From Phallusia mammillata (taxonomy: Eukaryota): DNA of 64,000 nt. The stretch spans positions 21,886,001 through 21,950,000 of the forward strand of contig OZ281495.1 in the NCBI GenBank assembly GCA_965637545.1, given 5' to 3'. The position numbers and the translations under genes were made by a program. The first letter of the stretch is position 1, and each line of letters opens with the position of its first letter. Positions 3,001 through 34,713 of this stretch are shown here, one piece after another. The notes under the pieces are model-generated. The model saw only the letters and a program-made list of their open reading frames with translations, was not told the DNA's origin and made no database searches.

Positions 3001-5312
3001 CGTCAAAAATGGTTTTGTCTCGCTCTTAACAAACCATCTTCACGTGACTAGTGTCATTTTGTGCCAAAGGTCTGTGATGCATCACAACAACGTGCACGCG
3101 CGATGAGGAAAGCAGCATGCGGACACCTGTTAATTAAATCACGCTGTTGTGACTTAAATCGTCCCGATCCTCCCTCTATGAACGCGCGCACTTGCATGAC
3201 TCTGCTTGCTGTTTGCAGTCAGAACGCAGTGGCGCGTTGGTGAATGTCACCTGGTAGTTGGCACGGAGCAATAGATGTGCAAGTGCTTGAAACCGTTGCA
3301 CTCGAATTCTGCCTATATTTCACGACCAGCACGCGACCTTCGCTTTCCCGCATGCAGGTGCTATTTCCAAAATTACTTACGCCTTTTTTTCCGGGACGCA
3401 TGGGCAAGACTCTTCACATCCAACGAAACACTGTTGAATATCATGCAGTCGCAGGTGACACCACTTGGTTACTCTTTAGCGCCCATTGGCGGCAAAGCAA
3501 TTACTTCATTTTCTTCGTATATGTGTAGTTGGGAAAGCTGATGCAACAGGTGGCGTGTGCCTATTATTATCCCGAAAACTATTGAACTTCAAAAGGTATT
3601 TTTGTTGTTTTCGTTCGGCAATTTCAATTAGGAAACAACTGCAACGCAGTATTGTATTGATAGATTGCAGAGTACGCTACCCGGGTGATAAAGTACAAGG
3701 TGTGAATTGAGTTAACGTTTCCTGCTGAACCAACTGCGTGGTTTCGAACCCACCTTTCACCTTAAAAATGATCGATTTCACTCGATCCTTATACAAAATG
3801 AGGCGATTCGTCAGAACCGCAAGTACTGCTGATATTTGAAGTGCGGGGAAACTGAAATTAAAGAATTCTTCGCGGAAAATCTTATGCATGTCCGCCGTTT
3901 CATCTCTCAGCGCTTGGCTGGCCAGCAAGTGACGCGAGACCCACTAATTGCTTTCTAATCTTTTGTTGAGCATTTTTCTTGTCCATGCACCCAAGGCGGT
4001 TGGTGTAGCTGGATGCCTGAGGTGCCGCTCACAAAGGTTGCCTGTCAGCTTGTCAATCAATTACCAGCACGGAACTTTGGCACTTGATGCCTGGGATAAG
4101 TGCTAATTGATCTGTTTAATTAACGAGTCGACTTTCTTCAGTGAACCTCTTGCCCCCAACGAGGTAAGGGGCTCAACGCTGCGGTTTACTGTGTGGGGGA
4201 TTTAGTTTTTGACAGCCAGACGCGAAATCTAGTGTTTATGCACAAAAAACAAAGTACCTGACGTTGAGATCAAACATAAGATCGATACAAATCGTTGTAC
4301 TATCGATACAGTTTTGGTTAATCATTTCAGTCTTTTTTGCGTTAAGAGAAAATCTCTTGCTGGTTTGAAGAGAGGTTTTTCAAATGTCATCGCAAAAGAT
4401 GCCGAACAGACAAACGGCGATTTCTGCATCACAGGTTTCCTGGAGGGGCGTGTTAACTTCGGAGACAGTCAGCTGACAAGAAATCAACAAAAGTAGGGAG
4501 CAGGTCGTGGCCGAACATTCTTTTTTCGCGCCACCACAACTGCGATAAAGCGGGCTGCCGCAACAGGCGTAAAAGTTCCTGCGAAAGCGTTGTTGTTTTA
4601 GCCAATTGCTTGTGTCAAAGCCCTACAACATGAAAGCGATACGGTGGCACAGATTCGTTCAAAGCAGGTCACCGCCTAGTGCCCCGCACGCCCGACTCTA
4701 ACCGGATCTACTTTCACCGTAATCTGCTCCCGAAAATGTTGGTACTCCACCATGGGGAGTCTGTAGCAGGACACGACCCTTGTTTGTGAAGAACGTGCGT
4801 TCACGAAAACTTGCCCATTAGACTAATACCCGATGATGGACGAGTTGCTTGCGTAACAAAACCTGTCACGTTTCAGGCAGCACTAACATATATAATATAA
4901 GGATAGAATAGCAAAAACAGAACTTTAACATTCCTACGATGCCTGGTGTTAATAAATCACATTTGAAAAATACTTGTTTAAAAACTTGTAAAAATCCGAT
5001 CAAGAACTCCCGGATATTTCGAATATGTTGTTCAGGATCCAGCTAAAAAGGAAATGTACTCTGGTGTGACATCTGGTTTCCAAACGCTTGCCACGTAACA
5101 GCTTAAGCCGTCATTTGCTCAGTTGCTCAGTTGCACAGGCATACTGCTCGCCTATGACGATGAAATAACAGGTAATTAGTATATTGCATTGTGTTGTATT
5201 GCTTTACATGCCGTGGAACGGAAAACGGATATGACGGCCGTATAGATAGAACATCGGAGGATCCTTCGATTGTATAGTCTCGTTCAGCAAGTTGGTAGGT
5301 GGAACAGACAAG

Positions 5313-8300
5313 ATGAATCAGGAAAGTTTGAGTTTGTTATTGGTCTCGATTTTATGTGGTTCCACATTTATTCAAGGTAAAGTGAAAAAAGAAATAGAAT
5401 TGTCTTGTTCCGTAGAAATTTGAACTGTAAGCATTCTATTAGGAAGTATGCCGACAAAGATGAAAACTTATAAGGACATGTAAACAAATTTGCCAAAGTA
5501 TATTGTCAATATATTGGCAGTACCTTTTGGGTGGGAGTTATTACTTTTGTTGGGAAAAGCCTATTCAGGCAAGGTTATGGGGCCTAATCATTTTATGTTT
5601 ATACTTTAAATAAATCGACATACAACATTTACAGGAACAGATATCCCAGATGCACACGAGATAGTTTATCCCAAAAAGGTTCTTCCGTCAGGTGAACTGA
5701 CATCGTCACTGTCGACCTACATCAACCCTGATGTAAGTCATATATAAAAAAAAAATATACATGTAACGGCATAGAAGTGACAAACTATTTGTTATTAGGA
5801 GAACGACGGTATGCATGAAACAAACTGTCGGTATCAGGTGGAATTCGAAGGACAAATCTACGATATCGATTTAGAACTTAACACTAGGATTGTGGCTGGA
5901 AAATTAACGCTCACGGATGGATCTAACGGCCGTACAACCTCTCCCAGCAAACAGGTTTGATTGAACATTTGTCATGCACAGGCTTGAAAACGACTCTTGT
6001 CAAAATACGCCAACAGGCGACGAAAAAACACACAATTACTTTTCACTGTGAGACATATAGATTTGGTGGATAAATTAATATCTTTGCTGCCACGCAGGAC
6101 ATCAACTACAGTCAGTACACCGGTACTGCAAGGAAAGTTAAGCAACCGCCCAGCAAGGAATTGTACGACGCCTATTTTGAAATTACGGAATTTATGGAGT
6201 AGGAAAAATGTTATATTAATTATTCACTGTTTATTACGCCCAACCTTTGCTACCTTTCTTAAAGGGGAATGATTGAGACTCCTGATACAATCGTTATAAA
6301 ACCATACAACATCGGCCATGTTGCATTTCGTCGTTCTGCAATAAAAGATGATGAGAAAATATTATGTGGCAATGAAGCTTTGGAGAAAGGAGAGATGAAA
6401 CAAAGAAGGGCAATGCATCAATTTTTAAGTACGGTGATTTATATTTGTGTGTGAGAATTTGTAACACAGGGTGCGGTAAAAGAAATAAGTTTTTTTTTAA
6501 ACTTTTTTTCCATGCCTTTTCCATGATTTTCCAAACTTGATTTTGTCACAATAATCACTCAAAACAAACTATTAAAGGTTATCTACAGAAACTAATTATA
6601 CCATATTAAGATCTGCCTGTGAACGAAGACTTCGTAAATGGGCGAGTAAAACGAAATTTGGAAGACAAAACAAAGTATCTTGAACTACTCATTATGGTTC
6701 CCTTTGATCTGGTGGGTCTGAATGAATTATGTTCGAAGAGGTCGGTAAAAATATGACAACGCATTATTTTCCACAGTTCCAATATTTTGGCGAATCTGTC
6801 CTCGACATGACAACAGCTATGCTGCGGTTAACGAACGCCATGGATTGCCTCTATAAACCGGTTGATATCCGAATCGTATTGCGACATATTGAGTATTTTA
6901 GCCAAGGAGATCCCATTCGTCTTGATTTGAACAGCTATTTAACAGTAAGGGCGTACGCATGAACTGACTGTATTAGATTCCTGGACTGGTGCCAAACAAA
7001 TGTGTGTGCAAAAATGTGAGAAATACAGTACAAAGCCCCGGATTTTTTATGATTGCCATTATATACGTTACGCTTTTATCAACGTAACTAAGTATGTTTT
7101 TACAACACATTGGGATTATTGGCGACCCCAGCAACAAAAAACTGCATTAGGTTTGTTCCCCTTGTTACACGTAATCAATCAGTCAATGGGTTCATTTTCT
7201 TGTTACAGACCGTGATTGCCGCGGAAGCCTACGTAAAAACTAGGATCCAGAGAGACCCAATGGATTCGCCTTGGCGAGATATAGACCACGTTATTTTAAT
7301 GAACAACGCCTCGTATGTCGAGATAACAACAGAGGGAAGAGTTCTTGGAGTAGCAAGGCTCTGGCAATTGTGTTCGGCACACTCTCTTTCATACATGGGG
7401 GTATGTACGTGAACTTGTAAATACTACTTAAATGTAAGTACAAAGAAAAACATGAAAAAAACGAACATTGAAGTATTTGTACTTGTAACACGGCATTGTC
7501 CTAACTGAATGACTTTCCAAAACCTTTCAAACACCGCGTGTCAGTTTACTAGTAAATTATAACAAACTGAAAAAAGGGGAAGTAATAGTTTCAGTTATGT
7601 TAAACTGTACTTAAATATGAAACCTATACTTGGCGTGCCATGAAAACTGACGTCGGACGTCAACGTGGCGTGACAGAAATTGTCAACCACTGGTTTGGGC
7701 GTAACGGTATTTTCCAAACCGAGTAGTTATGACTTTGTTCCTTCTGCGCAACTATAAATCCATTGCAATGTTGGGCAATGCACCTCGATTTTAATGGTTA
7801 CATGAAGATTTTAAATGGGTTTAGAATGGTTACATTTTAGTTCCAAGACGATGGACGAATGATTCGTGATTTGGTTGCCGTTCACGAGGTGGGGCATTCA
7901 ATCGGTTTACCGCACAATACTGCGGCCTGTGTTTGCGGTGAAGAAAACTGCATTATGAATGCCAGGGTTACAGTGTAAGTGGTAAAAGTATGAACTAAAA
8001 TATCAATCATGATCGTACATACTACGTCATTTTGAGTGTTGAACCAATCAAAAAGTAGCTTTTCATATACAACACGTAAGTCTAAATGTGATTATTACTT
8101 CTTTCAGACCCTATGCCTCAAAGTGGTCAAACTGCAGCAGGCTACTTATGACCCATGAACTTGAGTCAAGCACCGGAAGATGCTTACTAAATGTCCCCGA
8201 ACCTTCAATGCTCGAGCAAATAAACTCATGTGGAAACAAATTTTTGGAAGCTGGGGAACAGTGTGACTGTGGGACGGTGTCTGAATGCGAAAGGTCAGTT

Positions 8301-11300
8301 TGAGATTTAAGCCAATGAAACAAATCTACTGCCAAATATAGCATAGGAAACAACAAATATAAAACCTTAATCATGCAGCAAAAACAGCTCGGAAAAAAGG
8401 CACCAAGTAACCGACTAACCAAATTGTGTTGTGAAGAAAGACTGGAGGTCTTTAGACTACAAACAACCAATTTATTTAAGAACCCCCCCCCCAAAAAAAA
8501 AAAAACTTTGACGAATTGTAATAGTCCATCAGTTTGTGATTTGAATAAATATTTCAGAAATTAGGCGCGTTTTTGTTTCGCAGTTAGTGTTGCAATCCCC
8601 GAACCTGCCAGCTGTATGATTTTGCACAATGCGACGGAAGCCAGTCGTGCTGTAATGCAGCGACCTGCCGTTTTGCTACAGCTGGAACAATGTGTCGGAA
8701 ACCGTGCGATCCCGAATGTGATTTACCGGAGTACTGCAATGGAAACAATGCAACAGTATAAGCCTATTTTATAACACGCTGTTTTAATGACATTTTTTGG
8801 AAAGAACTTAGTTATGTGACCTGCAGAGAACACGCTTTAACAAGTATTAAACCCAAACCATAAGCTACGAATGCAACTTATCCGTTTACAAACTGAACTT
8901 ATACAAAATATAAATTGTTTGGCAGTGCCCGACAGACAAACGGGTCGAAGATGGAGCAGTCTGTAATGCTGGTCAAGACCGGTGCAAAGGTGGTTATTGC
9001 TTTACTCTAAACCGGCAGTGTGAACAGCGATTTGGAGCAGGTAAGATTCAGTTGATTTTTCTGCGCGGTTGACTGAAAACAACACCAAATACATCAATCA
9101 ACAAATCGCTAAAAACAAATATCGAGGTTTACTGTAAAATCTTCCTACATAAAGGTGCAACACAAGCTCCGGTAAACTGCTACGCATTAAACCTCCGGGG
9201 AGACGCATTTGGAAACTGTGGAGTCAACGAAACCGGTTCCTACATCCCTTGCAGTGTCGCGTAAGTCATCCTTTTGCCTTGTTTACGTGCAATATAAAAG
9301 ATGTTACACTGTGTTTTTCAAGTGACGCATACTGCGGTAAGCTTTCCTGCCAAGGTGCTGCGACAATATATCGACCCAGCAGCTTTCAAACTCAACATAT
9401 GTTTGCGAACTTTTCGGACGGGACTCTTTGCGTTGTTCACATAGAACCAGCCATTCCAGGAGTTTTTGACTTTAGCTACATACAAGACGGAAGTGGCTGC
9501 TTTGGTAACTCTGGGGTAAATGAATAATCTTGAGTTTGACTTACGTTTTGTAAGCTATTAACCTTAACGTCGCAATCTTATTTTTTCCGACACCTTGTAG
9601 ATCTGTGACAAGGGCAAATGTGACTTTTCGCATGTCTCTCTCTGCGACTCCTCATGCAACGGGGTAAGAAATTTCCCTTACTTCAATAAACTTATCATAC
9701 GTGATGAAATGGATACACTTGCATATACCACAGACGTGCAACGACGCTGGTAATTGCTTCTGTTCCGATGGATTTGCACCACCGAGCTGCACTGCGCCCG
9801 GAAACGGAGGAAGCATCGACAGTGGCCCTCCGCCCGTTGCAAATCCAAGTAGGACGTGTTGTTGTTGTACCATGCTTTCAGTTTAAACCCTAAACAAGTC
9901 TAAATAACGACGGTATTTCAAAATTGATAGACTGCGATTCATACAATACCAGTGTTAAATGGAATGATAACAGTGCAGCTGAAAGTGAAATAGCAGTGGA
10001 TGTCGTTTGTGGAAAGAAAATTATGATTAGGTATGTTTTGTGGTTTAAACAGTAAATTAGGTCTGTATAAGCCGCTTTCATTTATATTTTTGCTGCAGTT
10101 TTAACCTGTGTCCTTTCATTGCCCGTGGATATAACGTCGATGATTTGGTAGTGATCGCAGCAAATGAAGATTTCGATCCATTACAGCAAGTAAGTAGTCG
10201 TTGCCCAAACAATGTTACTCATAAACAGCGATCCTGTAGTTGTAGGCAAAACCGAAACGTGTAAACATATCACATTAATCGACTTAATTTTAAACAAAGA
10301 TAACCCGGTAGTGCTGCCACTGTTTTGTTAATCTCACCGACAATAACCACCAACATTATATAACAGAACGTAACTGTCGGAGATGAGTGTGTTGCCAAGC
10401 CCGGAGTTCTCGCAGTAGGAGAAAACTGGAGAGCTAGCATTGCGTTCAGCGTCGATGCCTGTGGTGGAGAAATGAAAGTGAGTTTAATTAAAACAATAAA
10501 TGTTTGATGGTAATCTATCGCAGGCTTTTCGAACAAAAACGAACCGATAGAAACAACCTTTCCATAAGTGCTAACAGTTCGCGTAACCTAAAACAATTCC
10601 ATTCTATCCTAGTCTGGAGAAACGTTTATCACCATCTCCAATCGATTTCGGGCAATCCGCACTGGTCGCACGGATGCTACGGAAACGATTGTCAGAGTTC
10701 GTCCAGAGGTTATCTACGACTTCTCCTGCAAATATGAGAGATCTCTCTACATGCAAATCTCGGCCCATCCAAACAAAAAGTAAGACAAGCGTTCCAAAAA
10801 TCTAAAAAACAAATCCTACGCTGATGCTAGGAAACTTTTTTTTGAAGAAATTTATTAGGCTACGAAGAGGCGCACAAGTATTACGAGGTCAAACTGTCGT
10901 TTTTTGCGGACGCCTCTTACGAACAAAAACTTCGGGTCGACCGGGATATTGTGGTTGTCGGAAACCGAGTGTTCGTACTGCTTGAAATACAAGAAGATAG
11001 CCCAAACCTTGTGCTGCAGGTTAAACAGAAATCCTGTGCGATGTTGCCACTCAAAAATGACAAACTGTAATAATGTCCAAATTTTCAGACTACGAAATGC
11101 TGGATATCACATGTAGCAGACGTTGAAGCAGAACCTCTTTACCACGTCATTGAGGACAGGTAAATTACCCCATTCCAAGTGTAACGTTTTTTTTTCGTGG
11201 TCTTTAGCCTACTTCAGCAACCACAGCTTTGGTGAAAGAATTTATCAAAGAACATACTTATACGTGTAGGGAGCATTTAAGAAGTTCCATGTGTTTTTGA

Positions 11301-11710
11301 ATATGCGCAGATGTCCAGATGTAGATCAGCTTGGGGAAGTTGGGGCCAATGCCATGAGTCAAAATTGCGTTAATCACCAGTCCAGATTTTCCTTTTTGGC
11401 ATTTTCCCATCCAGTGGGAGCAAACGCCAAGGAGCTCCATCTACACTGCAAAGTGCAGACCTGCCAGAATAACTTATTCGACTGCAGCTGTCCAGTAAGT
11501 TATCACAACTTTTATTTTGTCAACTCTTCTGTTTTCCAGCAATAGTTAATTTATTGTAGCTGTCATAGCATGAGCCGTTGCCAATACAAAACATTAAAAT
11601 GTCGATATTTTTTTCAGGTGTGCGACAATGTCAGACGTAAAAGAAGTCACGAAAGCAGTTTTGGAATCGAGAGAGTACTGTCGATTGGACCGTTACTGCT
11701 AAAGCGTTGA
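5313..11710 (+). CDS. Secreted ADAM metalloprotease-disintegrin fused to a C-terminal ZP module, copy 1 (24 exons; possible premature stop at 8585-8587)
   Basis: Hand-spliced exons: signal MNQESLSLLLVSILCGSTFIQG (5313-5376); prodomain HEIVYPKKV and Cys-switch-like KILCGNE; furin RVKR (6643-6654) then TKYLELLIMV; HEVGHSIGLPH (7883-7915) and Met-turn CIM; disintegrin CGNKFLEAGEQCDCG...ECDLPEYC; Cys-rich FGNCG, CGKLSC; EGF and GGSIDSGP; ZP motifs VVCGKKIMI, DACGG, FSCKY, KCWIS, RFSFLAF, LHCKVQTC; final exon VCDNVRRKRSHESSFGIERVLSIGPLLLKR*. Confidence 0.9.
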
Positions 11711-11763
11711 CCTAAAACTTAATTGAGTCATGTATTACATGTGGTGTGTTCTAGTGCTAGTTA

Positions 11764-11769
11764 AATAAA
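11764..11769 (+). terminator. Polyadenylation signal AATAAA of ADAM-ZP copy 1
   Basis: AATAAA about 55 nt after the TGA stop at 11708-11710. Confidence 0.6.
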
Positions 11770-12036
11770 ACACATACCAGGTCAAATCAAGCTTTTAGAT
11801 AATTACAGAGCTAAAGTAAAATATTTGTAGTTGGTTTAATTTGTCCAAGAACGCACAATGTTCAACTTATTCGGAGACGGCACATTTCAATCAATGTGAC
11901 AGAAAGACTGCAGTGGGAAAACAATATTTCACAGCTCACATAAAAAAATTATCTCACGGATAGCCCGGATGTAGAGACAACGTCAACTGTTATTTTGAAA
12001 TGTAGTATTTAGTCAGTTATTTGTCTTGTTATCAAC

Positions 12037-15000
12037 ATGGTGTGTTCCACGACATGGTTTCAAATAATATTTATATTATTTCTCAATGGTAGGTATTTGT
12101 TTTGTTTGCAACTTAATTTGTTTCAGATAATAATACACTACAGTTGGTGTTATTTTTTGTACCGTTAAAATTATTGCACTGAACCACAAAAAAACAATTG
12201 ATTAGTATTACAATACGGCAAGTATTATTACCCATTTTTGTGGGGTATGTCAGGAGTAAGTTTAGTTGATTCACGTTTTGTTTACGTATTGTAAAAGTTG
12301 AGTGCCATAAATGAGATTAACAACACACGGTTCCGTTAAAGACATCCATCAGAAAGGGGATTTTAGGTTCGGCATGATTCGGCCGAAATTATGTGACCAT
12401 GTAGTTGAATATTTCGCTTCGGGCCGAATCTTTTGGGGTGGGATCGGTACATCAGTAATTATAACACTTGAGCAATTCGTTGTAAAAGAAATACTAGTAT
12501 ATCTTATCGCTTGCAATTTATTCTAAAATTATTGAGCAGCTGTTCTTTGCATTTTGCACAAACTTTGCATACTGCAAAGCGCTCGTGCGATGAAAATTTA
12601 CCACACCTATCCAGTGTTTTTTTAAGGTGTTTTGGGGGACCGAAACGGTCCCCCAAATTTCTCCAGCGGTTTCCCAAAATTGCCAGTAGCCTAATAAATA
12701 ATTCGTTTAAGCAAATATGGCTATTTTTTGGTATTTAAATGAAATACTTGCGGTCTCCTAAAACTACTTAGCGGTCACCCAAACCAAACCTTAAAAAAAA
12801 CCTGCACCTATCTATCAACAGGGCTGAACAAGGCGGCGACAAACTTAAAACCCAATAAACTTCAAGATTACGAAGTTGTTTATCCGAAACAACGAATTAA
12901 TGGAGTTTGGAGTAATGATCTATCGACAAAAACCAAAAATACGGTTTGATATCTTTAAAACAAAACAATTTCCGAGGTACAACAAATGCAACATTTTTTT
13001 CCAGAACTATGATGGTTTTCACAAAAAACATGTGATCTTACAGCTGGAAACAATGGGTCGCGTTTTCGAGTTAAAACTAACCCTTAACTTGGATATCCTT
13101 GATGAACTATTGGTAACAGTGCACGAGTCCTCCGGAAAAGCTTCGTTTCCGGACAGAAAAGTTCGTTTTAAGAATTTTTGTAACTTTACCATGTGTTTTT
13201 AATGCTCATTACGTTACAGAATATGAATTTTTGTTTTTATGGCGGCAAAGTGTTTGAATATGAAAAGGAAGTAGGGATGGTTGCAATGAAAACGTGCGAA
13301 GGACTGGAGTAAGTCACTTGTAACTCTCAAATCACCACAAACTTTATTTCAGTCGTAATTATACAGAGGTTACCTCATGATTAACGACCTTAATGAAACA
13401 ATAGTCATAAAACCAGATGTTGAAAACGCTAACCGACACATTACTCAACTCGGAGAAAAGCTACCTGAAGGAGAACTCAAACAATGTTTCCAACTTGACA
13501 TGTCAAAAACACTGGACATCGAAATGAGTATTTTTTAATTTTCTTAAAATGTATGTTAATTTCCAAAAAAATCTTAAAGTTTCGTTTATAACTTGAGCTC
13601 CTAAACCAACAAATCGGCAAGGCAACAAAAAGTGAAGTTTAAGCGCAAAATGGTTGTTGCATCTTACATATCCTACCTCTTTAGCGAATAAACCTGACGT
13701 TGTCGCGTGCATTCATTTAAACATTGTTGCGCTTAGATCGTCCCAATCTCAGAAAAAGGCGAAGCGTTTTAACAGAGATTAAATACATCGAAGTCATGTT
13801 TGTCATCACATTTGATCTGGTAAGACGTTTAAAAGTAGTTTAATCGGATTCAAGCAATGAAAACTACTACCTAAATAAATAAGTTTTATGCGTTTGCAGT
13901 ATTCTAACTTTGCTGAAAACCAATTGAAAGAAATGATGTTTGAATATGCTAATGCCATGGATTGCCTATTTCAACCGATAAACATTAGGATTGTCCTAAG
14001 CAGCGTAGTGTTTTTCGACAAACAGTATTTGTTCAATGTATCATCACCTTTACAGGTAAGATTTTTTCCGTTAATCGCTAGACAACAAATGCAAATTACT
14101 TAGTTGTAGCATATGCAGTTAACATTATGCATGTAAGCATGTTAATGCGGTGTACAACGAGGAGAGATATATTAAGTGCGGTGTTCGACAACAAACTTTC
14201 CACAGCCCTTAAGTAGAAATAAAACCGTCCCCTTAACAAAACACCACAACTTCGCACTTTCAATATAATTTCAATGTCACCAGACTTTATTGGATTTTGC
14301 TGAATATCGTCTGCTTCAACTTGCAAAATCATCGGAAAACTCTTCCTGGCACAAATCCGACGTATCGATTTTGCTCTCATACGGGTCATACATAGACAGA
14401 GACAGCACATCGTCCACGCTGGGGATTGCTTTTCCCACACAAATGTGTCAAACGTCTTCAGTAGCCTACAGCAGTGTAAGTTGCATCGTCATGAAGCTGA
14501 CGGTCACGGTCACTTTAATTTTCCAAACAACCAAGCCTGGTGTGTATTAGGTCCGAAAAAATAACCGATTACCATTCGTAACTACACTAGTTCTGGTTCA
14601 CGAAGTTGGCCACGTGCTTGGAATACAACACGACAAAGAAAACTGCGTTTGTGAACAACCGTACTGCATGATGAGCGCCTATTTAAAATCGTAAGTATAT
14701 TTATGCTATCGATAAAAATAAATTTACAATCATTTTCGAAATGTGCGTTTTCGAAAAAATCTCAACATTCGAGTTTCATAGTTGTTTAAAACAGATTAAG
14801 TCAGACACACTGGTCCAACTGCAGTAAGCAGGAGTTAAACCTCGAACTGGAGATAAGCACCGGTGCATGTTTACTCAATAAACCTACTTCGATGCTGCCG
14901 ACCGTTGAATGCGGAAACAAGTTTGTGGAAGCAGGTGAAGAGTGCGACTGTGGCACTGCAGAAGAGTGCAAAAGGTAGAGTAAGATTTACTGCTGGGTAT

Positions 15001-18000
15001 CATCGTGAAAAGTGGATGTGTTATTAGACCTACTTAAAATCTATACCACATACGTCAACTTTATACTGTTAAGTTAGAAAACAACCTTCTTTTGATAATT
15101 GATAAAAAAGATCAAAGATGAAAGAATATGTGTTTTGCCTCAGCCGTTCCAACAACACACATACAAAGTTCGCTTGGGTCATGAGCTAAAAATATGACCC
15201 ATGGCTGTAAATACTTGTCGCATATTTTTATGATTACCAGCGGCGCGTAAAGACTGGTGACTGAAATTGAACGTTCACATAGGATAAAAAAACGCCCTTT
15301 CTGATAAAACATCTGATTGAAGGCCTTCTTACCATTGCAACAAGATACAAATCACAAATTCCCACCACAAGAGCTACAACAATGAAGTAAAATGTATCAC
15401 GACATGTAACTTAACATCAGGATCTATTGCACAAAACTATGAACCAATCTTAACAAAACTAGAAACAGTATTTTGATGTAGTCACTTTAAATAAAATGCG
15501 TATTCAACTCAGCTTTTGTTGCAATCCACACACCTGTAAGTTATGGGAATTTGCTGAGTGTGACGAGGAAGCTTGCTGCGATCAAAAGACGTGTAGGAGG
15601 GCGCCACCTGGTGTTCTGTGCAGGGAGCTTTGTGATCGTGATTGCGATTTGCCGGAGTATTGCGACGGCGAAAATGTTATGGTGCGTTCGCTGCATTAAA
15701 TTACATGATACTTTGCTGCTTCCTGTCACTAGCTTCTACAAATATTTTTTTGTACCAAACACATTTGTTAAACTACACAGTAAGCATCAATTGCTGTTGC
15801 GGCGTAACAAACCTTTATAACTGCGTTTTCTGGATGCATTGTAGTGTCCAGCGAATAGGATTGCGATGGACGGAACATGGTGTAATTCGGGAATGGACCT
15901 CTGCAAAGATGGGTATTGTATGACAAGGGATAAGCAGTGTGGGATAATTTTTCAAAAAGGTGAAAAAAATATTTTGTTCGTACAATAAAATTTGACAAAC
16001 CTAATTTTTTGTATTTTCTTTCTTGAAAAACACTTTTTGCTTTGAATGTAACCGCAGGTGCTGTAAAGGGGCACGAGTTGTGCTATCTCTTGAATGTAGT
16101 TGGATTTCAAGGAGGCAACTGCGGAGCAACAACCAACGGATCATTCATACCCTGTTCTTTGGAGTAAGTCCGGTATATTGTACTAACAGTTTCTTTGCAA
16201 CAAAGCCATATGCTTATACACTAAGAAAGATAGATTCCCCTAGTAATCCGTTTCATAGGCGCCGAGTAGGCGGTGGCGGGCTTGCGCCGTCCCCCTGGGT
16301 TTGTCAAGCACGGTGGCGGCCAGCGTGTAAATTTGGGTTAGTTTATAGCCGTATCGTACGAAATATCGTAAAATCTGAAGAATATTAACAACAATTGTGC
16401 CATTTAACGAGCGTGCTGGCGATTCAGCCACAAAACTTGGCTAAAAACTGCAACTTGTTGTGGTTAGTGCCTTGTTTATGACGTTTAACACACAATTGTC
16501 TCAGTGAATGTTCGGCCATTGTTGTGTACAATGCAAATGTGTTGTAATAAATGGTTATCTAACGTGATTTAAAGCAGCAACAACTTGACGAAACACTTTT
16601 GAACGTTGCTAAACCAATAATAAACGCTACAGCAACATGTTGCAATTGCCAGCTAAATATTATTTCAAACATATTGCTTTTTTCTTCTAATTTTGACGAA
16701 CGTTGCATTCCATGGAAAGTTTGGGCTTTGAGTTCTTGTGGTTGTACGCATTAGTGACGTCACACAAAGTGACGTCATATTTTACGTCCACCACCTTGCT
16801 TTTTTGCAAAACTCGGCGCCTATGGTCCGTTTTATATTTACTAGCTCCTACTTAATGGTTGATTTCATGTCGCACTTGGATTTACATATGTTACTCAGCA
16901 CAAATGTTTCTCAATACGTGTGTGTTTAACCTAGTAACGCTTTTGTTATTCATTCTTTTAATTTGGAAGGACACGTAGGTGAAAAGCACGAAATACGTTT
17001 GTTAATTTCACAATTATGCCAAACCATCAAAGCATCGTGGAAACTGACATTATCTGACCGAAACACGTAAAGCAACGACTGAACATAAGTAACGGTTAAA
17101 TACCTTAAAATGCACTAATGAAAGGAGCGTAAAAGAAACGTGCCTGTTCCCTTTAGGAAAGGGTGTCTATGATGACAATGAACCTAGCTGGCTTAAACCA
17201 CGCGGTCGTTAATTGCCATATTTTTTATCAGCAAGGTTGTATTATGTTTTCAACAACAGAAACCAGGATTGTGGAAAACTGTTTTGCGACAATGTTACTG
17301 GATTTCGTGTTATGCAATCAATGAACTCGTATGGTGAAATACTAAACTTTTCTGGACATGCATGTACGTATGCACACACACCAGAAACCCCAGGAGCAGA
17401 CGCGTATTACGTAAAGGATGGAACAGCATGCAGCACAAACGGCGTAAAATGTTTAACAATATTAACTGTTGAAAGAAAACGTTTTGTTATGTTACGTAAT
17501 ATTAGTAAAACAAGAGGTACAGTTCGATAGATTGGCATAAATAATTTTTTGTCACATTTAAATTTAAAAGAGAATTCATTTGATGTTGGTGTTCTCAAAC
17601 ACCATGAGATATATTTTTTCGCCAGCAACACTACGACGGCGCATATCAGTTCACAAAGTTGTAAAAATTATGAACGTTTAGAAACGCTACAAACGTTTTG
17701 TTTAGGTTTGCAACCAAACTGTATGTGAAGAAACGCCTTTAAACGTTTGTCCCAATTGCAGCTTGGCAACAGGGGTAAGTCAAACGTATTAAATGAAGCT
17801 CACGATATAATCGATCGTTAACCTTTACGCAACTAAAAAGGGAGAAAATGCCTTTTTTGATTTCACAACATTATGTGAACCTGTAAACAAAGGCTCACAA
17901 ATACTAAGCGTTATAATTTACGACTATACCTGATAGGTTTGCAATGATATTGGGCACTGTCACTGCCATCCCTTCTACAAAGGAGAAAATTGCAGTGTAT

Positions 18001-20166
18001 TTGACCCATCAGCTGCCGGAGGTAGTCCCGAGAGTGGCCCAGCACCTTTGTCTTTTCCAGGTACATGCAAAAGCATTTTCGTTCATTACATCCCACAAAA
18101 TGTGGTTTACGTATTTTTAGATTGCTCTGGCTACAATGTGACAGACAAATGGGATTCGTTTTCAGACATTGTATCTGAAATCAACCTAAACGTAATGTGT
18201 GGTATGGTGACGTACGTAAGGTAGGAAATGTAACATCGTATACAGGACAAAAAAATATCAAATTACTTATTTGCTGTATGTTATCATGCACTTATTTGTG
18301 TTATTATCTTGAAAATGCAGTTTAGATCTTTGCCCATTTATTGCTCGAGGGTACAAGGTTGAGGATCTTGCTCTGTATGACAGGAATTTGACTTTTAATC
18401 CCTTGTTTAAAGTATGATGAGCTTTGCCTTTGGTTACAAACTTATTTTTGGCTTTTATACCTTAATTTATTGTTTTGAGCTGCAAAATGTTCAACCGGAA
18501 TGTGTAATGCAGTCAGAACCATTTGTGGAAGTTGCCGCGCCAAGAGGGAAAATCGTAATATCCAATACTTTGGCTCTTGAACGTTGTGGAAGTCAAGTAA
18601 AGGTAGTGTACTGCCAAAACAAAATGAATGTGGCGGGGGTTGCACGAAATTAGACCAACAAGGATCTAACAAACAACGAAATGATTTAAAATATGACATA
18701 AGATCAAAACAATCAGTAAAAAATAATAGATATTTAATACGTCCGATGCATTTATACCACAATATATAACAGACAAACGGAAGCTGGACGACTTTTACAC
18801 ATCAATTACGAACAATTAAACCTGCAGCAGTCGACACGAGCAACACAATTGCAAGATCGTCCCCAGCGTTTATCATAGACATTGCCTGCACTTACGACTC
18901 GGAACTGACTGACATAATTAAAAACCGACCTATTCTTCGGTAAATAATTCATCCATACAGTAGCATACAATAGCGTTTTTATTAGGGCAAATTAACACAA
19001 TTATCGCTTCACTGTATAATCATATTACAACAAAATATGACCTCAACGTTGAGTAAAACAACATTTTTTTAATTTTATTAAGAAAATTAAATAAGTTTTG
19101 TAGTTAACCTGGCAAATACTTTTTTGGTCTGACATTAGTTGTACATTTTTGGAGCAAAAGACCGTGAATAACTACTGGTTTTTATTTTTAATTTGTTCAG
19201 GTGTACGTTGGACGCTGATATATCACGCGTTGGAAGCCAAGTTTTGCAACTACAGGCTTACCCCACTAATTTGTATGAGGAGCCTTATAGCGAACGACAA
19301 CCAACACAAATCTCGGTGGGAGAAAGAGTTTTCGTCAAGGCTGAACTAAAATCATATTACACAAAGCTAGTGTTGCAGGTGTGGGTGTAAAGCCAGAAAA
19401 TTGCGCCAGAAACGCTCTTAAACTATTATTTTTAGTTGATCAACTGTTGGGTTACCTCAGGTCCTTCACCAAACGACCCGTGCGCATTTAACATCATACA
19501 AAATGGGTATCTATGCTCATATACTTATATTTTTGTGTGTTGTTGTTATCATCCGTTTTACTAGGTGTGCCGTATCTGATGCCCTAGGCGTTGCAGGTGG
19601 AAATATCGTTTACAACAACTGTTTCTCAATGCATGCCAATTTTTCCTTTGTTGCCTTTTTCTGGGCAAAGTTACCTGCACAAGAAATGTACCTGCACTGC
19701 CAGACCCGCGTATGTCACAGAGATACGGAGGATTGCTCATGTCCGGTCGGTAGCAATCTGTGCAAGTATAGTAGTGTATAATTTCTGTAAACACCAAAAA
19801 CCAAACAAACTAAGAAGTTGTTAACGTGGTAAAACCTAATGGTTTGATATACATTTAACGTTTTTAAACATTCTGGGCAATAAACAACAAGTTCGTATGT
19901 CGTAAAAAAAATTTCACGTTTCGTTATATTTGCTACCGTCCTCATCAGGACAGTGAAACCAAGGGTTTAACTTGTTGTCTCGTAAAACAGTAAGAAAGGG
20001 TTGATGTAAAATTACAAGTTAAAGCTATTTCTTTTTTAAGTTCTTAAAAGATAATCTTAAAATTAAGTGTTATTTACAGAGTTGCAATGCAAAACGACGG
20101 CGCAGATCAGTTCAAAACAGAAATGAAATTACCAGCAGCCTGGGGCCCTTTACTGTGAAAAGATAA
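12037..20166 (+). CDS. Secreted ADAM metalloprotease-disintegrin fused to a C-terminal ZP module, copy 2 (24 exons, apparently intact)
   Basis: Signal MVCSTTWFQIIFILFLNG; DYEVVYPK; NFCFYGG...KTCEGLEG; furin RKRR then IKYIEVMFV; HEVGHVLGIQHD (14599-14634) and CMM; CGNKFVEAGEECDCG...DCDLPEYC; GGNCG, CGKLFC; EGF and GGSPESGP; ZP motifs VMCG, ERCGS, IACTY, NCWVT, NFSFVAF, YLHCQTRVC; last exon SCNAKRRRRSVQNRNEITSSLGPFTVKR*. Exon structure matches copy 1. Confidence 0.92.
12612..12804. mobile_element. Non-autonomous hAT-type MITE in intron 1 of ADAM-ZP copy 2
   Basis: TIRs CAGTGTTTTTTTAAGG / CCTTAAAAAAAACCTG; perfect 8-bp TSD CACCTATC; related inverted copy at 63090-63235. Confidence 0.88.
16254..16824. 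mobile_element. Non-autonomous hAT-type element in an intron of ADAM-ZP copy 2
   Basis: 14-bp TIR CATAGGCGCCGAGT / ACTCGGCGCCTATG; TSD ATCCGTTT / GTCCGTTT (7/8). Confidence 0.85.
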
Positions 20167-20198: not shown

Positions 20199-20204
20199 CA
20201 ATAA
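20199..20204 (+). terminator. Polyadenylation signal AATAAA of ADAM-ZP copy 2
   Basis: AATAAA about 33 nt after the TAA stop at 20164-20166. Confidence 0.6.
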
Positions 20205-20501
20205 ATATTTAAACAGTTTGGCGTATAAATTAACGTTTTGTGGGAGGTATATGGTAAAACATGTGACAGATCTTTGTTTAATTTAACAAAAAACGAACAT
20301 GTTTTCGTAAAACATGTAGTTTGCAATAACTTATTAATTAACTTTGATGTAAAAGAAAACATCACTCTCAGTTTAATGCAGGTCGTTTATTTTTCATATG
20401 TTAGTGCCGATGAACAACAAATGATTAGTTTTAGACACACGTGCAAATGGCTTTGAATCAATAAGCATGCAAAAGCTTGGTTTCGTGACGACAGCTAAAC
20501 T

Positions 20502-22429
20502 TTATCCTTGAGCCCTCAAGTAGCGAAGAAGCTGTTCAATAAGACTGCGAAGTTGATCGCTGGTCAAATCATTAGGCTTTTGGTCTGGTTTTGACTTCGG
20601 TGGCATGATTGTGGACTTTGCAGGCCCACCCTGGCACTGACGACGACAGAGCGAGTACTTTCGACCGGCCTCAAAGCTCTTATACCCACCAGCAGGAACA
20701 CATTGATCGCAGGTTGAGCAGTCGACAGTCTGTGGCTGCTGTTGGCGACCTTGTTGCAGTTGCTCGCGAGTGCAGTCGCCGGGACGAAGGTTTGCCTGGG
20801 TCGCTTGCTGTTGACGAGCGAAAAAGTTAAAAAAGGGAAAACCACTGTTAGTGCCCTGTGTGGACGGCGCCTGTCTTCCTGCAACACGCTTCTCTCCTGG
20901 ACATTCCGACTTAAAACCCTCAGATGATCCACCCAGTCCAGAAGGCCTTTGGCCATTGGGTGGTCCAAAACCGAAACGAGGTCTGTTTCCATAGGGAAAC
21001 CCTTGGCCACCACTAGGAGGTCCACGACCACCGCTAGGAGGGCCGCGACCACCACTAGGAGGCCCGCGACCACCAAAGAAACTTCCCATGTTGTCTGGTC
21101 GGGCGTTCTGGCCCCGACGGTTGGTGCAATTCGGCAATTGGAGAAGACCGCATTCCAAGCAATCGCAGCATCTGCAATCACAATTTTAAACGAATTTATA
21201 AACGTATAAAAGTAAACATATCAGGCTAACTGTGTCTTACCGGGGCTCAAGAGGAATTCCTTTAAAGCAGGGAACAACATGGTCTCTACCATTGGTTTCG
21301 CCAAACAAAGAAACATAACGATATTGCGACGGATCATCGTTGGGCTGAACAAAGAAAATAGCAGTGTTATAAGTGCAACAAAGTGTTTAGCATTTTTGTT
21401 CTTACCATAAAACCACCACACTCGTCTAGAACTTGCTTGATACCATCGTACATATCCGAGTCATAAATTGGAAATCCGTCTTCTGCCACGCCAATAATGT
21501 GAGGAGTGGTGGGGTCGTATGGAACACCTAGGCACCTTTATTTAAAGGTATGATATTTTTAACAACGGAGATAACAACAAAATTCTTAAAATTAGAAGCT
21601 ACATTCTGTTCCCAAATTATTTACTATGGTGTAAAAATATCACAAGGTAAAAATTATGTTAAAAAATCACACTGCTTAAAAAAACTCACGATAGTGCCTA
21701 CAAATTGCATCAAAAAGCAAAAACTTACGTGGTGTTTGGTGCACGATGAAAGTGATATTCTCCATGAGGGCTAGGATGGCCATTGCAACCATCAAACGTA
21801 CCCTCGGGCATGCTGTTCACATCCACACAGTCCGCTTCAAGATGATTGTAAAAGGCTGTTCCGCTCGTTGCAAACCCTGTGAAAAATATTTTTCTATTTA
21901 AACGCGTTAACATTTTATCATAACACATTATTGCTGGAATAAAAGTCGAAGTTTTTACATAGTCTTTAAGTTTTTAAATATCCTAAAACTAGCTTTGAAA
22001 AGTGTCAACAACATAGCCGGTTACGTACCAACAGACCCCATTGGAGCACAATAAGTTTCAGTTCTGGAAGCAACTGGGGAGCGTGGAATAATCATTGATT
22101 TGGCACGGGTGCAGATTCTTGCATCAGGTCGGCAACAGTTCATATCAGTGTTGTAGCAATCACCTACAGAAAACAAATGTTTGGAACTTTTACAAAACAC
22201 GGTAAATAGATAATATTGCATACACTTTTGACTTACTTGTTTCATGTTCTGGAACACCACTGATTGTTATCTTATAGTTTCCCTCAAATTTCTCGATGGT
22301 AAAAGCACTTGTGTTACGAATCGATCCTTGCAAGTTGTACTTCAAGATAAAGAATTCACGATCCGTAAGTGCCAAAGAACCAGTCACCAAACTTAGGACG
22401 AACACAAAACGCAAGACAGAGGCCAACAT
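20502..22429 (-). CDS. Secreted YHYH-domain protein with Gly/Arg/Pro-rich and Cys-containing C-terminal tail (6 exons)
   Basis: Signal MLASVLRFVFVLSLVTGSLA; spliced frame gives ITISGVPEH, PMGSVGFATSGTAFYN, FDGCNGHPSPHGEYHFH, IIGVAEDGFPIYD, LDECGG, QYRY, PCFKG, matching the motif series of the YHYH family; last exon is the 20502-21158 ORF frame. Confidence 0.82.
21005..21075 (-). repeat. Coding 21-bp tandem repeat x3 (GGRGPPS)
   Basis: GGRGPPSGGRGPPSGGRGPPSGG in the last exon of the YHYH gene. Confidence 0.85.
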
Positions 22430-24764
22430 TTCTTGACTTAGTCGCTGTAAAAGTGATGTTCAGCAAGCAAAGTTGAGTGCGCAGTTGATACGGAACTGTA
22501 CCCAACAAGCACCTTATATATACTTTTCGCACATGCACCGTGAACTACAACGGTGCTCCGAAAATATACAAACGCCCCCGGCCGACGCCGCAGGGCTTCT
22601 ATTTATGCGAATCCAAGAAAAATGTTTCGCAACAAGCACATTGGCGGGGTGGGCTACATTACAAGCCTTCGCATTGTATAAATCTTTTTCCTATCTCACT
22701 AAAACAGGTGAAACGAAAGACAACATAAAAGATCTACAAACTGAACTAATGATTTTGTTGTTTCGTTTTGTTGTTTAAAAGCCATGCACAAACACGAGTT
22801 TGCAAATCAGTTCCATTGAATGTACTCCTGCTAACGGTTAGTAGTACTGTTAAGGGTTTCTTGATCCACACACAAACATTAACAAAACTTTTCAGGCTAT
22901 GTACTCGGGTGCGTCCCGGGTTCAAAACCCGCCACAAAAAATGCAATCAATAACCACCGTTCTAATCAAAGCTAAAAACTTAAAACAAAAATTGATTGTC
23001 TGAAACATGCCAGTCTTTTAACAATCAGTGTTTTTCAAATTTACGGTTACGTTACACGTTTTTTAGTCAAAAAGAATTTAGAAGTGCTGCAGAGAACAGC
23101 TGACGTCCAAGGTCGCAAGAAGTTGTTATGCCGGCAAAAGATTATTTAATGGCGCAGGCAGTTGCATTTAGATACATTTATAATGGTTTAAAATCTTCAA
23201 CAAAGCCCTAAATTTGAACAGTGTTCACATCAGGAAACCAGAGCGACAGTGACGTCAGATTGACGTAGCAGGGTCGATAAAAATATTTTTTAGTCTTTTT
23301 AATCTTCTTACTTTAAATTGCCACGAAAACATGCAGCTATTTCTATTGCGATAATATCGGGTTTGCATTGCCCAAGCCGTGTGATATATAAGGATATCCG
23401 GTATTGGATGTGGCTAACGCTTGCGGGCATTTGCGTCACAATGGACGATTAAATTAGTATCACTTGACCCTTCAGGTCCCCAAATCGACCAAGTTGGCAA
23501 CATATTGTGCTAAAAACGAGAGACGTCATAAATAGAAAAGCGTATGAACTAAAATAAATCTCCTACGTTAAATATTGTCTTTAAAATAGATTTGATCAAA
23601 GCAAAAAATACTTTGGAACACGTTTTCAAAAATTTTAAACAGGCATATTTCATAGCAGTTTCGTCAATGGGTCGCTTACAAAAAATTGTATGTGTATATA
23701 TTTTAACACCAATTTACCCAGGATTTTTCCTAATTTCTGCATTTTTAACGACCAAACGCGGTTTTCCAAACCAACAAAAAATGTCACCTTGCACATCTTA
23801 TCCAATATTGACCGTGCAAACTTTTAGTAAAACACTAGCTTATGAAAAATGTTTTAGAAGTGCTTAAACATGCTAGTTTAAACTGCACAACATCACTAAT
23901 TATATAATTAATAAAGTATATGAAATAAAACTTAACCATGTATGTTTTATGCCTGAAATTATACAGAAACCAATAAACACTACATGTTTGTGTTTTAGCA
24001 ACCATGTCAAACAACATTTAATGTCCACAAACAAATACCAACTAGAACGGTGGCTTAGAACATTTTGTGGTTGCACATACACTATAACATATTTTAAAAC
24101 ATTAATATATTTCCTATGCTTATTTTATACTGGGTCCCATATTATCCACCGTCTTATATAACCTTGGTTGTTTCTGCAGGCAGAAACTCATGGGTCCCCA
24201 CACATGCAAAGTTGAAAATAATGTATTTCAAGAGATAACCACGTGAAAGTTGGGTGTTGTAAGGCAAAACACAGTGATCGACACCAGACTTAAACAATAA
24301 TACTACATAGAATGGCATTTAGTGTTTATCAGAGGATCTTTCCCGTAAATAGTAGGCATCTTCTGTCGACGATCACTGATTAAATAGTGAATTATCTGTC
24401 CCCCTTTTTTTCTGTGTGCGCACCGATCCCTTATCGCTTTTGGCAGTCTTTGTCCTTCGTATGGCTTAGACGTAGTTTAGAACTTGCGTAGTTAGCAGCG
24501 GTTGTAGCAGGTTGCTGTTTCCTTTTTGGTGTGTTGCTAATTTTGATTGGCTTTATTACTTGGTTTTGGTTTTACTTTTACACCCGTTGTTTGACAGACG
24601 ACTGATGATGCCCTTACGGGTGAAATATATATCGTTAAATAACATTTGTTGACTGATTCTGGTTAGGAAGCGCTGTTGCTTCGTCAATTATTCTTAATAC
24701 TACGTAGAGTACAAACTATACAAATCGATTTTACCCCACATATTGTTTGAAGTATGTCCTATTC

Positions 24765-33073: not shown

Positions 33074-33525
33074 TGATACCGAACACAACTTTAAAGACAA
33101 ATGAGCCAACTGATAATACTCATATTTTTGTCTCTCCCATGCCGATGTTAATGTTTACAAACGTTGTTTATCCAACCGTGAAAGAGTAAAAACTTTGAAG
33201 GTTTAACTTTTTGCATTCGCTGGCAGTAAATTGTCAAATTTTTAACAAAAAAATGATATAAAACATTCTGATACAAGCACTTATTTTTTTACTTAACATT
33301 GTATCAAGATTTTCCAAAAATGTATGTACTAACATAGAGATCTCCATGACGTATTTATTGCAGTTTTTGTTCCGCATGATTAACTCACGTGGAGGTAAAG
33401 ACAAGAAAAGTCACAAAACAAATCACTTTACTTTAGCATCAGTCTTTTTACAACTGAAGTGTTTTGTGCGGTATATCTGTAAAAAAAATTGTAGTGTTGA
33501 TGTACTGTAACATTAAACAGGTGGT
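33074..33525. promoter_or_regulatory. Probable bidirectional promoter region between HAO and ZNHIT2
   Basis: Divergent start codons about 450 bp apart; CACGTG E-box near 33386. Confidence 0.4.
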
Positions 33526-34713
33526 ATGGAGACCGATCTAGATTCAAAGCCTTTGTGTTCCGTTTGTAAATTAAAAGAATTTAAATATACCTGTCCGAGA
33601 TGTAACATACAATACTGCTCCACCTCTTGCTACAAAGCTCCTGGTCATTTTGCTTGCTCAGAATCATTTTATCAGGAATGGTTTGTTCAAGAAATGAAAG
33701 AGCGCAAAGTTTCCTTTAGCGAACAAGAAAGAGTTTTGTCAATGTTGCAAAGAGTTGAAGAAGAGACTCCAATTGATGAATATATGGATCAGACTTCAAC
33801 CCTTGAGGAAAGACTTCAGGCATTAAACTTAAGTAGTCTCAAAGAAAAAGACACAGAAAAACTTTGGGATATTCTTACACCAGACGAAAGGGAACGGTTT
33901 AAAGCCGCTGTACAAAAAGGAGAAATTTATGATTCCTCTGGCTGTTCATTAACACAGCCATGGAAACCTTGGTGGACAACAGCTAAAAGCTTGATAGAAG
34001 ACATTAACAAGCTAAAAGATATTTCTTCGGCCCTTTGTCCAAAAATCATCAAAGTGCCCGAACTTATGTCTTTGTTGCCAAAAGGCAAAAATCTATCACC
34101 ATTGGTTGCATTCAACCTTGTTAACACACTATACCCTTATGTTTTATTTCAACGATTATATAATGGTTGTGGTACTAGTGATTTTGTCAAAGATTTTAGT
34201 TGTTGCTGCATTAAAGCGTCACTTTTTCTTGACCAGAATCAAACTTTTTTGAATGCTGAAGAGGCCTTAAACAGTGCCATTAGGTTTTCAGCAGATACAT
34301 GTCAAAATGAACATATTTCTGTAAAGGAAGCAGCACTGACAGAAACAATAAAAGATGTAGGTCAAATTTTAACTGGACCTGCAGAGGACAAAATGTCTGA
34401 CTATATATGCTCTGCTTTGTCTGATTTACACTTTGCATGCAGTACACATAAAAGAAGTTTAAAGAAGAACTCAAATACAAATCAGGGTGATGGATATACA
34501 AGTGCAAAGCAATTGTTTTCTATCATAAAAAAGTTGGAGTTTCTTATTTCATGGAGCTCCCATCAGAATGCATGTCTTCCTCTCCTTGCAATGGAAGTTT
34601 TTGAAATATACAAACAAAAGAAAGCGGAATTAAAGGCTTTTTTGGAAATAAGTCAATCCGTAGTACGCAAACCTAACACACCAAAACCGCCACTCATTCA
34701 GGAAATAAATTAA
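33526..34713 (+). CDS. ZNHIT2: Zinc finger HIT domain-containing protein 2 (intronless CDS)
   Basis: 395-aa ORF with N-terminal zf-HIT CSVC...YTCPRCNIQYCSTSCYK..H..CSESFY, then LWDILTPDERERF, WKPWW and C-terminal KKLEFLISW...PLIQEI, typical of ZNHIT2. Confidence 0.9.
   Translation: METDLDSKPLCSVCKLKEFKYTCPRCNIQYCSTSCYKAPGHFACSESFYQEWFVQEMKERKVSFSEQERVLSMLQRVEEETPIDEYMDQTSTLEERLQALNLSSLKEKDTEKLWDILTPDERERFKAAVQKGEIYDSSGCSLTQPWKPWWTTAKSLIEDINKLKDISSALCPKIIKVPELMSLLPKGKNLSPLVAFNLVNTLYPYVLFQRLYNGCGTSDFVKDFSCCCIKASLFLDQNQTFLNAEEALNSAIRFSADTCQNEHISVKEAALTETIKDVGQILTGPAEDKMSDYICSALSDLHFACSTHKRSLKKNSNTNQGDGYTSAKQLFSIIKKLEFLISWSSHQNACLPLLAMEVFEIYKQKKAELKAFLEISQSVVRKPNTPKPPLIQEIN

Follow-up and report, generated by a model that had tools for sequence, protein, structure and literature searches.

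ADAM-derived protease genes of Phallusia mammillata that end in a ZP cassette and lack a detectable membrane anchor

Introduction

ADAM proteases are defined by their membrane anchor. Two genes in a stretch of Phallusia mammillata DNA appear to encode ADAM-derived proteins in which this anchor is replaced by a ZP module, whose assembly is switched by proteolysis. The stretch, hereafter ‘the window’, comprises 64,000 nucleotides (assembly GCA_965637545.1, contig OZ281495.1, positions 21,886,001 to 21,950,000 of the forward strand). The locus raises the question of whether these genes are intact and, if so, what a protease of this kind might do with a ZP ending that has no anchor of its own.

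An intact and expressed ADAM-ZP gene

Copy 1 extends from position 5313 to 11710 of the window (plus strand, as are all features of copies 1 and 2 given below). It was modelled exon by exon as 24 coding exons with 1038 codons, and all of its introns are of the GT-AG type. The first exon (5313-5376) encodes a hydrophobic N-terminus (KD19 1.51) that, as judged by hydropathy only, is a likely signal peptide. This is followed in the spliced model by a prodomain with the furin-type site RVKR (6643-6654), an M12B catalytic domain with an intact zinc-binding motif HExxHxxGxxH (7883-7915) in an exon that matches PF01421 above cut-off, a disintegrin exon (8588-8755; PF00200, E 2.7e-11), Cys-rich and EGF segments and, finally, a full ZP module consisting of ZP-N, a linker and ZP-C (exons 17-23, 9931-11494). 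The EGF exon is joined to the ZP module by a phase-1 intron. When single exons are used as queries against Pfam, the reprolysin, disintegrin and ZP-C domains score above cut-off, and the propeptide (PF01562, E 0.0026) falls below it. Both halves of the ZP module carry the conserved cysteines; ZP-C is recognized by PF00100 (24.9 bits for the last ZP-C exon), and ZP-N is recognized through alignment with tunicate ZP proteins, its exons giving no Pfam match when queried singly.

Evidence for transcription comes from sequencing runs that software guessed to be RNA, none of which is recorded as such. This guess is supported by the fact that their cover is confined to exons and includes GT-AG joints. 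About one third of the words of the locus are present in the runs so classified. Two contigs of 3252 and 3127 nt, from two runs of two studies, each extend from the catalytic domain to the ZP-C exons. Moreover, in the region 9700-12200 the same eight GT-AG joints, which are the last eight of copy 1, are found in all four RNA-like runs (two studies), and these include the EGF-to-ZP joint 9848>9931. The possibility that the gene is a prediction chimera, formed from an ADAM gene lying beside a separate ZP gene, is therefore ruled out, given that a single contig covers both parts and that the joint between them recurs in every one of the four runs.

The assembly shows an in-frame TAG in copy 1 (8585-8587). 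This is most likely an assembly error, because RNA-like runs X1 and X3, which derive from two studies, have C at base 8586, as does DNA run X9, a possible source of the assembly itself. A pseudogene was rejected on the same grounds. Relative to run X9, the window also differs by three substitutions and a one-base deletion, at 5248, 5473, 5899 and 7559. Copy 1 is real and expressed.

Two paralogues with the same gene structure

Copy 2 (12037-20166), which was modelled from sequence, likewise has 24 coding exons, and its 1018 codons are open throughout. Its spliced model includes the prodomain furin-type site RKRR (13751-13762) and the zinc-binding motif (14599-14631), and its ZP module occupies exons 17-23 (18121-19745; PF00100 31.2 bits for the last ZP-C exon, together with alignment). 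No cover of copy 2 was found in runs X1, X3 and X8, which had been selected with copy 1. A third paralogue (copy 3), located on contig C4, has an ending like those of copies 1 and 2.

All 23 intron phases are common to the three copies. Copy 1 is only 36% identical to copies 2 and 3, and copy 2 and the C4 paralogue are 74% identical to each other. The HExxHxxGxxH motif is present in all three proteins, within a reprolysin domain that also has the Met-turn. For the pair formed by copy 2 and the C4 paralogue, dN/dS is 0.19 overall, 0.13 in ZP-N, 0.17 in ZP-C and 0.33 in the 28-codon last exon, and ZP-N is the most conserved region (84%).

Several smaller features of these genes were also noted. 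The ZP-N/ZP-C linker of copy 2 (19201-19210) and of the C4 paralogue contains an extra cysteine that is not found in copy 1, and which is a candidate for an inter-subunit disulfide. In the models of the same two copies, the exon 19 acceptor is the rare GAG (18477-18479 in the window). Copy 2 holds high-copy repeats in its introns 1 and 13 (about 12230-12810 and 16250-16830), where the summed depth of the DNA run is very high. Operon-like, trans-spliced gene arrangements are known in ascidians. About 250 bases separate the 3' end of copy 1 from the ATG of copy 2 (11790-12037), with an AG acceptor at 12013, and this spacing could represent such an arrangement.

The C-terminal cassette and the missing anchor

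A sequence-only reading of the window had pointed to the endings of copies 1 and 2, which were said to consist of a basic cleavage site and a short tail, followed by AATAAA. Both endings were confirmed. The last coding exon of copy 1 (11618-11710), which is supported by the gene model and by RNA-like contigs, begins at a phase-0 AG acceptor and encodes a cysteine, the consensus furin cleavage site RRKR (11633-11644) and a 21-residue tail. Within this tail is a GP motif (11687-11692) flanked by an EHP-like strand (11675-11701) that was assigned at the sequence level by alignment to the corresponding motif of homologues. The stop codon (11708-11710) precedes AATAAA at 11764-11769, and the 3' ends of RNA-like contigs lie at 11771, 11782 and 11792, with the shortest contig stopping within the last exon. 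The last coding exon of copy 2 (20080-20166) is, in the sequence model, organized in the same manner: a phase-0 AG acceptor, RRRR (20095-20106), a 19-residue tail that includes an EHP-like strand (about 20131-20157) around its GP motif (20143-20148), a stop codon (20164-20166) and AATAAA at 20200.

Such endings are expected to be rare by chance. When an ending is defined as a basic site, 8-22 residues, GP-hydrophobic and a stop within 8 (a pattern that was formulated after the sequence had been seen), the six frames of the window contain two, compared with an average of 0.045 per control in 200 first-order Markov sequences. At least one ending occurred in 8 of these 200 controls, and two occurred in only one.

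Each of the three proteins has exactly two furin-type R-x-K/R-R sites, one at the prodomain boundary and one after ZP-C. This distribution fits the earlier suggestion that one convertase may perform both cuts.

The assertion that the proteins have no TM or GPI signal also held. No Kyte-Doolittle 19-residue window of at least 1.6 was found beyond residue 40 in a hydropathy scan of the three spliced models. Furthermore, only about 4-5 residues follow GP, and therefore a GPI signal has no room. It is conceivable that an anchored isoform is made by use of an alternative last exon, such that the anchorless form is one product among others, but we consider this very improbable. A search for such an exon in the RNA-like contigs yielded only the ZP-C-to-last-exon joint 11494>11618, which is present in all four runs (two studies), and no other joint or loose end was found at donor 11494 in these runs, with the caveat that assembled contigs drop rare isoforms. 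Copies 2 and 3 are without RNA support here, and this leaves some room for the idea, as do hydrophobic frames reached from downstream phase-0 acceptors within 3 kb (3 of 123, 0 of 134 and 1 of 146 for the three copies). However, the hydrophobic frames 3' of copy 1 belong to the signal-peptide region of copy 2, to an intron and to a catalytic exon. In addition, no splice donor is found between GP and the stop codon in any of the three copies.

Origin of the fusion and loss of the anchor

A conventional ADAM gene on contig C3 provides a useful reference for the protease portion. Its exons 2-16 can be matched to those of the fusions with the same phases, albeit with weak scores for exons 2 and 5, and thus the prodomain, disintegrin, Cys-rich and EGF order of the fusions is reproduced exon by exon. 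In this C3 gene the EGF exon is followed, past a phase-1 intron, by a TM exon and then by a tail rich in Pro. The same phase-1 intron leads into ZP-N in the fusions.

A fourth ADAM with an intact zinc motif is located on contig C1 (about 32,216,400-32,227,000, minus strand; loci L008 and L009). It has the same intron after the EGF exon, but here the intron leads to three exons that look like a degenerate ZP-C standing alone, with a stop past the last cysteine. A 71-nt exon of phase 0-2 scores 37, compared with 8 in the C3 control, and is followed by the cysteine pattern and the stop. No ZP-N, CFCS, EHP or TM was found in this tail, and its ZP-C-like frames gave no ZP match in Pfam. The C1 ADAM therefore appears, at the level of sequence, to keep only a degenerate ZP-C. 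Because it has neither CFCS nor EHP, an appended module can seemingly persist without the assembly switch.

For the ZP portion, comparison was made with other loci in the same genome, in which the scoring of 150 of 362 candidates gave at least 151 PF00100 matches. Dozens of near-identical ZP copies are clustered on contig C3 at about 2.9-5.7 Mb. The sample comprised 41 loci, of which 40 were drawn from the 150 listed ZP-C matches, being picked from among the best-scoring ones that reach the end of the domain, with most near-identical C3 copies passed over; locus L003 was added. An exon in which CFCS is followed by GP was found in 36 of the 41 loci with one pattern and in 34 with a stricter pattern, or 37 in union. 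Two matches, an intronic one at L047 (an SP variant with three codons to the stop) and one at L039, were discarded as spurious. The recurrence of the same CFCS-GP exon supports the EHP assignment by homology. Together with the alignment to tunicate ZP proteins, it bears out, as far as motifs can, the earlier statement that the ZP cassette (CFCS and EHP) is kept.

The sampled loci and the fusions diverge just past the GP motif. There, each of the 37 loci keeps its exon open for no fewer than 15 codons, compared with about 4-5 codons in the three fusions. Among the 34 loci found with the stricter pattern, a hydrophobic stretch lies in the same frame in 8, a candidate TM or EGF exon lies downstream in 21, and neither was found at the threshold used in 5. 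One of these five is L003, a ZP-TM gene labelled CUB-like by eye, in which a TM exon was likewise recognized by eye, and whose final ZP exon phases are, again by eye, the same as those of the fusions. Given that 37 of the 41 other loci read on for at least 15 codons, anchor loss is judged from these gene models to be a derived trait, specific to the fusions and kept in three paralogues.

Comparison with known ZP and ADAM proteins

The fusions are like membrane ADAMs (ADAM8/9/12/19/22/28 type, M12B) in the order of their prodomain, catalytic, disintegrin, Cys-rich and EGF segments and in their prodomain furin-type site. Membrane ADAMs are also the nearest database matches for the catalytic-disintegrin junction of the fusions, and the exon phases are common to this genome’s own TM-anchored ADAM. 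However, the fusions have a ZP module instead of a TM segment and cytoplasmic tail, and so they are ADAM-derived rather than canonical membrane ADAMs. No PF00100 domain was found among the 120 ADAM matches listed out of 656.

In their ZP-N/ZP-C cysteine framework, and in having CFCS followed by a GP-containing EHP, the fusions resemble uromodulin/GP2-type proteins and tunicate ZP-(EGF)-TM proteins (Clavelina XP_076801163, CAK8690020 and XP_076809685; Ciona savignyi H2Z692). Unlike the fusions, these proteins continue into EGF and TM segments, and relative to uromodulin the fusions have two extra ZP-C cysteines. A ZP-C profile searched against 1.84 billion representatives gave 18 matches. None of them is coupled to a protease domain of this type, and those that carry names include ZP-EGF-TM proteins of Clavelina and Ciona.

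An anchorless ending is by itself a known layout. Soluble egg-coat precursors of fish and birds are anchorless ZP proteins, as the sequence-only reading had noted. Other examples are at hand in two articles, where amphioxus BbZP2-5 are described as having no TM, with CFCS in BbZP3 and 4 (PMC3543715), and LZP/OIT3 is described as secreted and as having CFCS (PMC7909667). These precursors share with the fusions a signal peptide, accessory domains, a ZP module without TM and, in some, CFCS. Their extra domains, however, are LDLa, vWA, EGF or D8C, and only the fusions have a catalytic protease. Other reports mention truncated standalone ZP-C proteins in nematodes (PMC7456536) and ascidian coat proteins that combine ZP with vWA or EGF repeats (PMC9265791). 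A further analogy is found among astacins, whose architectures include ZP as an accessory domain according to the legend of figure 1 of PMC9848320; these would likewise pair a metzincin catalytic domain with a ZP domain, but in another protease family. The fusions can also be likened to ADAMTS proteins, described as secreted reprolysins held in the matrix via C-terminal modules, although the ADAMTS tether is made of thrombospondin repeats and not of a polymerization module activated by cleavage.

Searches of databases with queries of 60-76 residues, and of the open-access literature at the level of main texts, revealed no ADAM-ZP fusion. Since the queries were short and the literature was limited to open-access main texts, this absence is provisional. 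The cassette is ordinary ZP biology, and what is unusual is its position at the end of an ADAM-derived protease. The earlier emphasis on the anchorless ending therefore under-weighted the ADAM-ZP fusion, which is the real oddity of the locus.

Possible functions of the cassette

At the sequence level, all three copies have CFCS followed by EHP, an alignment places the ZP-N fg-loop Arg in each of them, and the linker between ZP-N and ZP-C is of normal size. The FXF position is F-R-F in uromodulin. Copies 2 and 3 share F-x-W with tunicate homologues, but copy 1 has F-S-H. A PDB search with the ZP-C profile returned only uromodulin, at E 0.17-0.24 and ranked under chance matches, and a word-index search with the ZP-C exon gave no match.

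The sequence-only reading had taken this module to be polymerization-competent. According to a uromodulin study (PMC7737619), EHP forms strand G of the ZP-C domain of precursors, and a subunit can enter a filament only once cleavage has led to the release of this strand. Neither the FXF motif nor the fg-loop Arg is dispensable for uromodulin polymerization, as reported there and in a preprint (bioRxiv 10.1101/2023.06.21.544075). However, the former source also describes EHP as necessary for ER exit and secretion even in polymerization-dead uromodulin, and uromodulin truncated right after EHP as secreted, uncleaved and non-polymerizing. EHP retention alone is therefore no proof of polymerization, and the competence of the present cassette, which is predicted from motifs, is unproven.

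These data give some substance to the second most likely explanation, which we nonetheless consider rather unlikely, and in which the fusions are soluble, non-polymerizing proteases whose EHP serves as the last ZP-C strand for folding and secretion, and whose ZP module is a binding or dimerization arm. The anchorless, non-polymerizing uromodulin construct and the role of EHP in ER exit would both fit such a protein, as would betaglycan and endoglin, which are named in PMC7909667 as ZP proteins that do not polymerize. The degraded FXF of copy 1 and the C1 paralogue, which seems to have ZP-C only, point in the same direction. Nevertheless, folding alone needs no tetrabasic site, and this site is kept in three paralogues as one of only two per protein; moreover, ZP-N is the region most conserved between copies 2 and 3.

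At the other extreme, the cleaved proteins might polymerize with themselves or with their paralogues, away from the producing cell, to form a fibre studded with active sites. The complete ZP-N and ZP-C, the normal linker, the fg-loop Arg and the F-x-W of copies 2 and 3 are compatible with self-assembly, and fish egg-coat precursors, which are made in the liver, shed their C-termini as they assemble. We nonetheless regard this as quite improbable. According to PMC7737619, homopolymer assembly of uromodulin needs an anchor. An early furin cut in a soluble, self-polymerizing precursor would also risk aggregation inside the cell, as is described in the same source for uromodulin without EHP.

Our preferred explanation, in which we place about as much belief as doubt, is that these are intact ADAM genes whose anchor exon has been replaced by a ZP cassette, and that they encode secreted proteases which are cut twice by a furin-like convertase and dock into ZP filaments formed by anchored proteins. 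A conventional ADAM gene would have been duplicated, a ZP cassette would have been inserted at the phase-1 intron that follows the EGF exon, and the TM/EGF continuation of the cassette would have been lost through a stop codon after EHP. During secretion, EHP would keep ZP-C folded and inert. One cut would then remove the prodomain and the other would free the tail of 19-21 residues, whereupon the opened ZP module could enter a ZP matrix as a minor subunit, with the matrix replacing the membrane as a tether. Potential partners are plentiful, as at least 151 ZP-C matches are found in the genome.

In favour of docking, the fusion and its ending are transcribed as one spliced contig in copy 1, and a putative cleavage site of basic residues after ZP-C is kept across paralogues that are only 36% identical; all three copies also have the fg-loop Arg. 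Weighing against it are the absence of the second aromatic of FXF in copy 1, the C1 ADAM with its apparent ZP-C only, and the dependence of assembly on a membrane anchor in uromodulin and mammalian ZP proteins, which by analogy might extend to the fusions. The uromodulin construct that ends after EHP fails to polymerize, and released subunits do not enter the filaments of neighbouring cells (PMC7737619). The negative result with uromodulin may not transfer to the fusions, however, since the site in uromodulin is cut by a membrane protease and those here are of the furin type.

A broader proposal is that these genes represent a lineage-specific ADAM that traded anchoring for ZP assembly, such that one convertase step both activates the protease and builds a filament carrying its own remodelling enzyme. 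This we offer tentatively and with slightly more reservation than confidence. If the protein does join a ZP matrix, this would be a novel means of positioning a protease, and the locus would offer a natural system in which to study how anchorless ZP precursors assemble. Phallusia is an experimentally accessible ascidian, and controls are built in: anchored ZP paralogues that share the last exon, a copy whose FXF motif is degraded and a paralogue that is likely to have ZP-C only.

Other genes in the window

A convergent gene on the minus strand (20319-22460) combines a repeat exon rich in Gly/Pro with an exon rich in His/Cys, is covered by RNA-like contigs, and has its 3' end about 120 bases from the AATAAA of copy 2. 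From a reading of the ORFs, the region 31800-57200 contains what we take to be an FMN-oxidase-like gene, a DEAD-box-helicase-like gene and, on the minus strand, repeated Ig-like exons. The ZNHIT2 ORF (33517-34713) matches a Phallusia mammillata protein at 100% identity.
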